DNA of 64,000 nt, from positions 39,122,001 to 39,186,000 of the forward strand of contig OX597818.1 of assembly GCA_951406725.2 (NCBI GenBank), in the 5' to 3' direction. The translations under genes were made by a program, and so were the position numbers. This DNA is from Octopus vulgaris (Eukaryota). Positions 828 through 62,004 of the stretch are shown here, in pieces. Below the pieces are notes generated by a model. It searched no databases. It was not told where the DNA came from and worked only from the letters and a program-made list of their open reading frames with translations. Position 1 is the stretch's first letter. Each line of letters starts with the position of its first letter.

Positions 828-3800
828 GTAAGTATGAAATCAATTCTTTAAAACAAATATCGTGGCTGAACTTGTGATAGGTGGCAAGAAACCACATTTG
901 TCCTCTGTTACTCTTTTTCTTCTCTCTTATACTTTCACTTTCGTCCTGATTTTCTCTTTCTCATTTTTTTCTTCCTTCCTTTCATTTAAAAAGCAATTGC
1001 AAAGGACATAGCAGTTCTATAAAATAATGTCTAAAGTAATCTTGTAGTTCAAAAGAGAGGAAGAAAAAAAAAAAGGCAAAAACACAATCAACTGCTATTA
1101 ATGAAGTTACCTCTTATATCTGAAAGTGATTATTCTTTCAACTATAAACAATTTTTGTGTGGCTTTCAAAATGTTAAAAATGAAAGAGCATTGAACCTCC
1201 ACATTTAAACAGCCTCATGAAACCATTGAGTATTTCTTCTACTGTAGAACATGCATACATACATAGATACATACATACATACATACATACATTGTCTCAC
1301 TCATACCAGCATGGAAGGCAGATGTTAAATGATGATGATGATATATATGCATATACACATATATTCATACATACATGTATGTATGTATGTATTATGTATG
1401 TATGTATGTATATATGTATGTATGAATGTATTTATCTATCTATCTATCTATCTATCTATCTATCTATCTATCTATCTATCTATCTATATATATATATATA
1501 TATATATATATATATATATATATATACACACACACACACATACAGGTACAACATTGATTTTCTAGAAACATTTTGTTCCAGATAATTGATATTTTTTCAA
1601 ACCAGAGCTGGTGACCTTAGCCAAGACGCTATAAATTTTAACAAAAGTCAGCTTTACTTAAATAATTATAAGAAATACAGTTCCTCTCCATTAGCTCAAA
1701 TCAGTGTGGATTCTAAAAGGCTCTGGGGCATCAGTGTACAGAAAGTCAAACATTAAACTGAAAGGTTGCCTGCTATCCTTCAGTAAAGTTGCAAGGAAAA
1801 GACTGACCACTGCTTCACCAGACTGTCAAATGGAAGTTATATAGCCAAAATTTCAAAGAAACTGTTCATTGTAAAAAGTGTATATATATATATATATATA
1901 TACACACACACACACACACACACACACACACACACATATATATATATATATATATATATATATATACACATACGATACATACATACATACATACATACAT
2001 ATATACATGCATATATATATATATATATATATATATATATATATATATATATATATATATATATATATATATATATATATATATATATATATATATACAT
2101 ACATACATATGGTGGCTGCCCCCTCGTTATTGAGTATGGCCATTGCACGAAGCTTAATCAATGTTGTTGTCATGCAATGCCTGTGCAAGAAGATTTTTTT
2201 TAAAGTGAGGAAAGGCTGTGCACAGAGTCAATCCCACTCACTAAACAACAGCAGCCATAATCCGAAAAGAAGAACACATCAACATCATCGGTAGCCACTG
2301 AGCCACAGGTTTTATGTCGGAATTATCCCAGTTACCTGAGTTACCTTCTCCTAGAAGGATGCCCTAACAAAGGCTAGGAGTCCTTCACTCCCAATGGTTT
2401 AACTGCTCGATCGGGTATTCAGTCTGATTATTTCTATGTCCCCGCGCATGATACAGCCTTAAGACATTTATTGGATGGCCGTTGACTCTCAAGAGTTCCT
2501 CCACCCTTTGACGTGTTTTGTTTTTCATCCCGCAGGGTGTCCAATAAACACCCTCCTCACCAAGCAAGCTTGGTGGGGTTGCCGGTTTAGTCACCGATGA
2601 CCTGGCCATGCAACAGGTTGTACTGGGTTACATGTTACCAGTAGCATTCGAAAGTGACCATACATGCATATATATACATACATATATGCATACATACACA
2701 CACACACACACACACATACACACACATATATGTATATATGTATGTATGTGTTTGTGTGTGCATGTGTGTGTATTGGGAAATGCAAACACAAAACTGTCCT
2801 GCCAAGTGAAGCTGAACCATTTGAGGTGCCACCTCCTACAAGCAAAACAGTATTTTATGGAGCATACTTAAAACTGATTGGCCATAGTTAAACTCACCAT
2901 GACTCAATTCTTCTCCCATGTAATATCTTTGGTCATTGTCAACAATGACAGGCGAACTAATATAATATATACATACATACATACATACATACATACATAC
3001 ATACATACATACATACATGTGCACATACATATATGTGTGTGTGCGTGTATGTGTGTGTATATGTATATAAATAGGTAGGTAGACAGATAGATAGAATGTA
3101 AAGATTTTAATGACTTTTAATTAATTCTTTTTTTCTCTCACGTGTTTTGCAGATGACAGTAACAGCAAGCAAACAGTTTGCTATCTCTCGGCAAACTGCT
3201 TCTGCCAATGTAACCATCACGGTGACAAGAAATTTGAATGGACCTATATTCTCAAGTAACATATATACTAAAACTATTGATGTTAACAGTCCTCCTGGTA
3301 CAAGTATAATACAGCTCACAGCCAGTGATGCTGATAAACATGTAAGTGATTGGAATATACATGACTATAATTAATTATTTATTATATATTAGCTTAACAG
3401 AGATGTTACCAAATATCTTTCAGAAATTACTAGAAGAATCAGCAATCCTAAAATATTCAACATTTTTTTTTATATACATTTTTAAAATAGCTGAAAAAAT
3501 ACTTGTATAATGAGTTTGTAAACTACATAAGTTTGTTGGGTCTCAGAGAGGCAAAGATAAATGACTGAGACCTTTGATATTATGCTGTGCTTGAGAAAAA
3601 GACCCATCAAGCCATGTGAAATCATAGTCCTGGCAGATACTGGTGTCGCACATATGGCACCCGTGCCAGTGGCGCATAAAAGCACCCATTACAGTCTTGG
3701 AGTAGTTGCCATTAGGAAGGGAATCCAGCCATAGAAACCATGCCAAATCAGACTAGAGCCTGGTACAGCCTTCCAGCTTGCCAGCCCTAGTCAAACCATC

Positions 3801-62004: not shown

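Follow-up and report, generated by a model that had tools for sequence, protein, structure and literature searches.

The mechanics of cadherins are usually explained by three calcium ions bound in each linker between successive extracellular cadherin (EC) repeats. In E-cadherin, the glutamates of the XEX and DRE motifs hold ions 1 and 2. Site 3 is normally built by the side chain of the linker Asn and the backbone of the last residue (PMC8691648). Linkers with fewer ions are known as scattered hinges; for example, the EC5-6 linker of PCDH15 is without DRE, keeps DxD and XDX, and in each of its three crystallised conformations has a single Ca2+, bound at site 3 (PMC7547225). Here we describe a 64,000-nucleotide (nt) stretch of Octopus vulgaris DNA (assembly GCA_951406725.2, contig OX597818.1, positions 39,122,001 to 39,186,000 of the forward strand), hereafter the window and numbered from its first letter, which contains the central part of a single giant cadherin that is expressed, is non-classical and belongs to a lophotrochozoan family. 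Its linkers resemble that of PCDH15 EC5-6 in having lost DRE and the linker aspartates while keeping the linker Asn, DxD and XDX. They differ in that the design recurs at least 48 times, with one residue fewer, a conserved Arg and, often, a retained Glu on strand A', whereas the PCDH15 linker is a single isolated one in an 11-repeat protein, is flexible, has XEX altered as well and has no such Arg reported for it. The linkers of CDH23, by contrast, are mostly canonical. Reduced-calcium linkers are thus already known; what appears to be new is an Arg-Asn (RN) motif that is repeated dozens of times with conserved Arg. No description of RN-type linkers or of such a family was found in the literature by title or abstract start, and Albertin 2015, Wang and Ragsdale 2017, Jin 2012 or their supplements may already have these linkers.

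The best explanation overall, to which we give a probability of about 0.58, is a rewired one-calcium linker with an Arg bridge, used in a spacer block. Throughout a long central block, the linker is one residue shorter than DxNDN, with Arg (sometimes Lys) taking the place of the first Asp and Asn following it. The linker Asn, DxD and the F-G loop Asp of the next repeat would form calcium site 3, and most linkers would bind one Ca2+ and a minority none, as ligand conservation and the solved analogue suggest. Co-variation points to an Arg that would fold back into the emptied pocket of sites 1 and 2 and form salt bridges with the surviving A'-strand Glu and with the acid at the Glu position of DRE, serving as a built-in cation in place of two ions. 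To judge from the architecture of relatives, the RN block most likely acts as a long spacer, separating a few canonical adhesive repeats at the N-terminus from a membrane-adjacent domain of CDH23/PCDH15 type with its transmembrane (TM) helix.

The window is AT-rich (33.5% GC), eukaryotic and abundant in microsatellites. De novo exon calling, six-frame profile searches and inspection of exon borders gave 32 exons on the + strand between 702 and 62004, each a multiple of 3 with AG/GT borders, which join into a single stop-free chain of 1692 residues (Table 1). Sixteen short A exons (123-153 nt), encoding strands C-E, alternate with 16 B exons (174-192 nt), each covering strands F and G, then the linker, then strands A and B of the repeat that follows; all 16 linkers lie within B exons, and the mean repeat length is 317 nt. 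The gene is open at both window ends, and exon 702-827 shows that it begins before 3153, where the earlier note on this DNA had started it. Two orthologous gene models, P0001 (which ends at exon 23913) and P0123 (which begins in exon 27603), together match 27 of the 31 window exons tested at 75-98% identity, exon 5695 being outside this comparison; a match is wanting for four A exons. PF00028 scores both models at E values of about 1e-189 and 1e-177, 8/16 half-repeat exons match it below the Pfam cut-off, and a profile search retrieves cadherins of the PDB, which places the repeats in the cadherin superfamily.

The gene is transcribed, a case that rests on spliced joints. Contigs of four runs, guessed to be RNA, were mapped over 20700-23960, with spliced joints taken as the evidence. 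The GT..AG joint 21366 -> 23063 was found in all four runs and the next joint (23191 -> 23728) in two. Run X6 has a contig of 21,057 nt, of which 16,050 nt lie past exon 23913; its loose ends match exons 16937 and 27603, and the halves P0001 and P0123 therefore belong to one transcript. An artefact or a pseudogene is ruled out by the open chain, the splicing and the orthologous exons that are 75-98% identical. Exon 23728-23913 shows single-base differences at 23825, 23875 and 23876 in contigs of X6 and X10, which may be alleles or come from a related species. All 31 introns are in phase 0 within a strict two-exon unit, and skipped exon pairs would preserve the frame and alter filament length. 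The A exons absent from P0001 and P0123 are more likely gaps of the gene models; no skipping was seen at the joints tested with contigs.

The earlier note had held that all 16 linkers replace DxNDN with an (R/K)N motif and lack DRE, and that they mostly keep DxD, the F-G loop Asp and a following PxN. Much of this is borne out: none of the 16 linkers carries DxNDN, none of the 16 A exons carries a DRE/DYE-like motif, DxD is present in 14/16 linkers and the F-G Asp in 13 of the 15 that can be tested. PxN, said to be mostly retained, was seen by eye in only 7/16 A exons. As to the motif itself, Arg or Lys stands before Asn or Asp in 13/16 linkers (in linker 2, Asp replaces the linker Asn), while linkers 9, 12 and 15 have Ser, His and Gln; the idea that all 16 are alike is rejected. 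The pattern [RK]N-x3-P-x-[FW] occurs 12 times in the window chain, whereas 2000 shuffles gave it 0.04 times on average and never more than twice. What the note overlooked is a deletion of one residue, which sets the Arg in register with the first Asp of DxNDN: 14 of the 15 testable linkers are shorter than canonical (13 with 6 residues, one with 5), linker 9 having 7. An acid on strand A', not scored before, survives in 8/15 linkers (7 Glu, 1 Asp), and the Glu position of LDRE is acidic in 4 of the 14 repeats scored and, by eye, in two more. No window linker has the complete canonical three-calcium set (XEX, DRE, DxNDN, DxD, XDX), and 12 of the 15 testable ones show the pattern of site 3 only, that is, linker Asn, DxD and F-G Asp kept, DRE and the linker aspartates lost.

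The same design was followed through a family. Profile searches returned 269 proteins, of which sixteen were picked for their RN content as the family and the other 253 served as controls, including thirteen proteins with 2-3 loose 'R' calls. A strict linker rule is satisfied by 225 of 346 family linkers (window included) and by 10 of 5042 in the controls, and in 8 of these ten the Arg/Lys follows an Asp, in the manner of ordinary DxND(E) linkers. HMMER alignments to CELSR1 place a one-residue gap at the linker. When 273 non-canonical family linkers were compared with 3835 control repeats, the hydrophobic residues of strand G were found at -11, -9 and -7 from the Pro instead of -12, -10 and -8, and the distance from the last of them to the Pro was six residues in 183/273 family linkers as against seven in 356/400 controls. 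From this shift and the shorter spacing it follows that the Arg occupies the first-Asp position, where Arg or Lys is found in 187/273 family linkers, that the residue after it is deleted, and that the Asn stays four before the Pro. A DRE-like motif remains in 6/273 family linkers (316/400 in controls). Within LDRE the Asp and Arg positions are free, and the Glu position is acidic in 128/267 (Asp in 44%) compared with 348/392 controls. At most two of the five side-chain acids of sites 1 and 2 are kept in 252/267 family linkers and at most one in 145/267, whereas all five are kept in 270/392 controls; an acid stands at the fourth linker position in 32/267.

The ligands of site 3 behave differently. 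DxD (185/230) and the F-G Asp (209/230) are near control levels (365/400 and 366/400). The linker Asn/Asp co-varies with the DxD of the downstream repeat (odds ratio (OR) 6.0) and that DxD with the F-G Asp (OR 19.9), and no such link exists between the linker Asn/Asp and the DxD of its own repeat; co-variation across the joint and not within the repeat is what would be expected of one site spanning the joint. By a stricter alignment rule, 144/230 family linkers show the site-3-only pattern. Because site 3 is kept, the acids of sites 1 and 2 are depleted, and PCDH15 EC5-6 with the same losses binds one ion, we consider it likely that a typical linker would bind one Ca2+, at site 3. The claim that site 3 is retained is supported, and that of one calcium in all 16 linkers goes too far: linkers 12 and 15 are predicted to be Ca-free because DxD is missing, with the next F-G Asp lost as well in linker 12. 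Together with the 45/230 family linkers that are without DxD, these two are probably comparable to the Ca2+-free linkers of DN-cadherin EC2-3, PCDH15 EC9-10 and LI-cadherin EC2-3. The latter have lost all ligands and are described as sharing no motif, whereas RN linkers keep site 3 and a common motif.

That the conserved Arg/Lys may stand in for a cation, as the earlier note proposed, gains statistical support from its co-variation with the two acids to which ions 1 and 2 normally bind. Arg/Lys occurs together with the A' Glu upstream of it (OR 2.9, p 1e-4), while the downstream Glu, taken as a control, shows no such link (OR 0.93), and the upstream A' Glu is the best of 66 acidic columns scanned against Arg/Lys (p 3.8e-4). 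In the subset with intact site 3, taken to remove general decay as the cause, Arg goes with the A' Glu at OR 6.2 (n=144, p 5e-4) and with the acid at the DRE-Glu position at OR 5.2 (n=135, p 0.0025); for the latter acid, the downstream control over all linkers gives OR 1.66 (p 0.11). The link between Arg and Glu persists after de-duplication at 50% identity (253 clusters, median p 3e-4) and at 42% (102 clusters, median p 4e-3). Co-variation with two pocket acids, and not with control positions, supports a swap of Arg for calcium, and on these alignments we regard the Arg-acid bridge as somewhat more probable than its opposite.

Several points weigh against this reading. The family was chosen by RN content, which biases its frequencies. 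The Arg-Glu link is gone at 38% identity (30 clusters, OR 1.5, p 0.71) and at 35% (8 clusters), and at 38% the control pairing reaches p 0.04 (30 clusters); the co-variation statistics also ignore the repeat tree. Neither partner acid is present in 41/267 linkers, and the A' Glu is missing in 34 of 124 Arg/Lys linkers with intact site 3. The geometry of calcium and Arg is inferred from ligand conservation, a solved analogue and co-variation, and the structure model comes from a bivalve orthologue at a predicted template modelling score (pTM) of 0.30. Finally, the A' acid and the one at the DRE-Glu position are both present in 96/267 linkers, which would suffice to bind a second ion, so that of the claim that sites 1 and 2 are systematically lost only the depletion of their acids can be upheld.

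This last point leads to the alternative that survives best, a two-ion linker, in which, in many of the joints, a site 2 for Ca2+, Na+ or K+ would still be built by the A' Glu, the DRE-Glu-position acid and the bridging Asp of DxD, leaving only site 1 to be filled by the Arg. Besides the 96 linkers with both acids, it is favoured by the co-variation of the DRE-Glu-position acid with the downstream DxD (OR 3.9) and by solved two-ion linkers (PCDH24 EC2-3, PCDH15 EC2-3 and EC3-4), monovalent ions at site 1 having been solved too. However, both linker aspartates are gone, the fourth-position acid being as rare as stated above, one of them is replaced by a cationic side chain, and more than half of the family linkers (145/267) have one or none of the five acids. 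We consider a two-ion design rather unlikely.

A second alternative is a flexible hinge, in which site 3 would merely cap the downstream repeat, the joint would swivel as in PCDH15 EC5-6, and the Arg would point outward for another job, such as lateral packing or the binding of glycan or matrix. The sole solved linker of the site-3-only type, PCDH15 EC5-6, takes three conformations, a flexibility that also counts against our main reading, and bending has generally been reported for linkers that are partially Ca-free. The AlphaFold model of P0026, the bivalve orthologue (predicted local distance difference test (pLDDT) 74, pTM 0.30), confirms the EC fold, one repeat fitting CDH23 EC9 at Z 15.8 with a root-mean-square deviation (rmsd) of 1.8 A over 104 residues, whereas its pairs of repeats superpose badly on canonical ones (rmsd about 6-8 A for about 200 residues, at that pTM); the misfit is a weak hint of a different interdomain angle. 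A hinge leaves unexplained why the Arg tracks two pocket acids of its own linker and not control positions; moreover, the RN linker is shorter, not longer, and a non-canonical linker can remain rigid, PCDH24 EC2-3 with two ions being reported as rigid in simulations. The hinge is, in our view, unlikely. With the Arg bridge, a shorter linker held by a salt bridge could change stiffness either way; that the joint is stiffer than PCDH15 EC5-6 is possible, with the balance tilted slightly against it, and the "long rod" of the earlier note is unproven, given that the one solved linker of this kind is flexible.

The weakest alternative, and a very improbable one, is a founder effect, in which a single unusual repeat gave rise to many copies and the motif was simply inherited with them, serving no particular function: RN repeats share the two-exon unit and mostly cluster in a tree built without linker columns (103/107 on one side of a split together with 9/70 controls, at a support of only 0.77), yet the repeats are 29% identical at the median while the Arg is 68% conserved across three phyla, and in the same tree window repeats pair in register with repeats of Patella and Potamilus (support 0.90-0.96 for four repeats; one window repeat is placed among controls), that is, with in-register orthologues in limpet and mussel. 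A common origin is likely, but leaves the retention of the Arg unexplained.

Profile searches for the distribution of the RN linker, as the earlier note had suggested, found the family in gastropods, bivalves, a brachiopod and a nemertean, the named members being from Babylonia, Haliotis, Patella, Crassostrea, Mya, Dreissena, Potamilus, Tegillarca, the brachiopod Lingula and the nemertean Tubulanus. Annelids, arthropods, cnidarians and deuterostomes had no member among the best 120 of 1668 and 150 of 20,333 matches, which are ranked largely by repeat number and do not imply absence. The ESM Atlas yielded nothing but generic clusters of cadherins. Searching with the C-terminal region of P0128 gave no further member (6 matches among 957 candidates), and a search for short relatives added a single member, P0289. 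Several RN-type models occur per species, namely P0128, P0160 and P0174 in Patella vulgata, which may be paralogues or pieces of one split gene, and P0122 and P0127 in Haliotis rubra. P0127 and P0197 continue with canonical-looking sequence after the RN block or a TM-like segment and are possibly fused models. Outside the family, P0121 (7285 residues) is a separate giant cadherin with canonical linkers, in which a near-identical unit of four repeats is copied many times.

Most relatives are named 'Fat 4-like' in databases, which looks like an automatic transfer and is misleading. A very long EC array is common to Fat/Fat4 and the RN family, but Pfam found neither EGF nor laminin-G domains in any of the 10 family proteins scanned, four of which reach the membrane (TM end), and a true Fat cadherin is rejected on this ground. 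The 'protocadherin Fat 4' of octopus skin mucus (PMC11431876) and of oyster settlement larvae (PMC6337334) could not be tied to the window gene.

The C-terminus of the window protein lies outside the window, and the membrane-adjacent domain (MAD) and the ends were seen in relatives. The most complete of these, P0246 (3387 residues), has an apparent signal peptide (by eye), canonical N-terminal repeats, the RN block, a canonical repeat again, a MAD, one TM helix and a tail of 105 residues. P0056 likewise starts with canonical repeats, and a two-sequence profile of the first repeats of both found no full-length match among stored cadherins; EC1 may resemble that of PCDH15. The MAD of P0246 was modelled from a 4-row alignment at a pLDDT of 58 (core higher). 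The top ranks among 48,161 chains went to CDH23 MAD28 (Z 10.6, rmsd 4.3 A, 107 aligned) and PCDH15 MAD12 (Z 9.7, rmsd 3.8 A, 114 aligned), and Foldseek reached E 5.6e-4. The match to both is by fold only, at 16-17% identity, and sequence searches with the domain gave no PDB match under E 0.3 and no relevant Pfam match. Based on this model, the relatives end in a ferredoxin-like domain of CDH23/PCDH15 type before one TM helix, and with a long EC array and a short tail they resemble CDH23, PCDH15 and PCDH24 (Cr-2). By analogy with CDH23 and PCDH15, the protein is most likely a long tether with the RN block as its spacer. RxKR furin-like sites lie within a repeat close to the membrane in 3/7 family proteins, P0128 (residue 3088), P0156 (2691, 2718) and P0160 (2578), and from these the giant ectodomain may be cleaved or shed.

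The window gene has at least 49 linkers: the window itself supplies 16, P0001 adds 13 upstream, of which the first is canonical, and P0123 adds 20 downstream. If collinear, the X6 contig runs on for about 13 kb after the last exon of the window, and the total would then be roughly 70 or more. At roughly 4.5 nm per cadherin repeat, about 70 repeats would span some 300 nm. CDHX is said to be a sucker-enriched octopus cadherin of 77 repeats, described by Wang and Ragsdale in 2017. A sucker-enriched octopus cadherin is cited in PMC6339937, PMC6110919 and PMC6062618, two of which give over 70 or 77 EC domains and one of which names CDHX. On the fit in size, the window gene is likely CDHX. In that case CDHX is not unique to octopus, given the in-register orthologues in limpet and mussel.

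Table 1. Gene and exons in the window, with the state of each linker; A and B exons are as defined in the text.
Feature	Positions	Strand	Observations
Internal part of giant atypical cadherin gene	702..62004	+	32 exons, 16 linkers; from exon calling and spliced contigs
A exon 1	702..827	+	no DRE; Asp at DRE-Glu position by eye; 83% to P0001
B exon 1	3153..3341	+	linker 1: Arg-Asn, DxD
A exon 2	5695..5817	+	no DRE
B exon 2	5987..6172	+	linker 2: Lys-Asp, DxD
A exon 3	7926..8048	+	Asp at DRE-Glu position
B exon 3	8306..8491	+	linker 3: Arg-Asn, DxD
A exon 4	11206..11331	+	no DRE
B exon 4	12472..12660	+	linker 4: Lys-Asn, DxD; upstream A' Glu
A exon 5	14093..14221	+	Asp at DRE-Glu position by eye; absent from P0001 model
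B exon 5	14382..14567	+	linker 5: Arg-Asn, DxD; upstream A' Glu
A exon 6	16937..17089	+	longest A exon; 3' end matches loose end of spliced contig before 21175
B exon 6	21175..21366	+	linker 6: Arg-Asn, DxD; upstream A' Glu; spliced to 23063 in 4/4 runs
A exon 7	23063..23191	+	spliced to 23728 in 2/4 runs
B exon 7	23728..23913	+	linker 7: Arg-Asn, DxD; contig loose end behind exon matches exon 27603
A exon 8	27603..27743	+	meeting point of orthologous models P0001 and P0123
B exon 8	29196..29384	+	linker 8: Arg-Asn, DxD; upstream A' Glu
A exon 9	30741..30872	+	no DRE
B exon 9	33450..33638	+	linker 9: no Arg/Lys, canonical length (7); Asn and DxD present
A exon 10	37788..37925	+	no DRE; no orthologous match in P0123 model
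B exon 10	38440..38628	+	linker 10: Lys-Asn, DxD; upstream A' Glu
A exon 11	41701..41832	+	Glu at DRE-Glu position
B exon 11	42368..42553	+	linker 11: Arg-Asn, DxD
A exon 12	43334..43465	+	no DRE
B exon 12	46008..46187	+	linker 12: His-Asn, no DxD, length 5 residues; F-G Asp of next repeat also missing; predicted Ca-free
A exon 13	49166..49297	+	Glu at DRE-Glu position
B exon 13	51774..51956	+	linker 13: Arg-Asn, DxD; next F-G residue is Glu
A exon 14	54040..54165	+	no DRE; no orthologous match in P0123 model
B exon 14	54330..54518	+	linker 14: Arg-Asn, DxD; upstream A' Glu
A exon 15	56893..57024	+	no DRE
B exon 15	59008..59181	+	linker 15: Gln-Asn, no DxD; predicted Ca-free
A exon 16	61113..61241	+	Glu at DRE-Glu position; no match in P0001/P0123
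B exon 16	61825..62004	+	linker 16: Arg-Asn, DxD; upstream A' Glu; next F-G loop outside window

The introns hold various repeats. Remnants of open reading frames at 18464-18928 (+) and 53183-53992 (-), for which Pfam gave no meaningful match, resemble the C-terminal part of RTE-type long interspersed nuclear element (LINE) proteins. Two very long (AT)n arrays, with copy numbers of about 480 and 970, occupy 19715-20670 and 24463-26400, and dispersed repeats resembling short interspersed nuclear elements (SINEs) occur on both strands, for example at 165-464, 6328-6672, 47191-47373, 50369-50737 and 58468-58902. Repeat-like intronic stretches attract very high contig depth.

Taken more widely, we tentatively propose, while judging it somewhat less probable than not, a class of giant cadherins common to lophotrochozoans, in which a central 20-65 repeats would carry an Arg salt bridge for two of the three linker calcium ions, forming a filament of several hundred nm with its own stiffness and calcium dependence, a tether at water-exposed surfaces; CDHX would be its longest member and not an octopus invention. 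The RN family tests whether a protein side chain can replace ions and what this does to stiffness, and its hundreds of natural linker variants, with or without the Arg, Glu, Asp or DxD, are usable for such a test. Through it, the structure of the giant octopus cadherin would become easier to approach, and it would bring to light an old molluscan and lophotrochozoan family hidden under the 'Fat 4-like' label.

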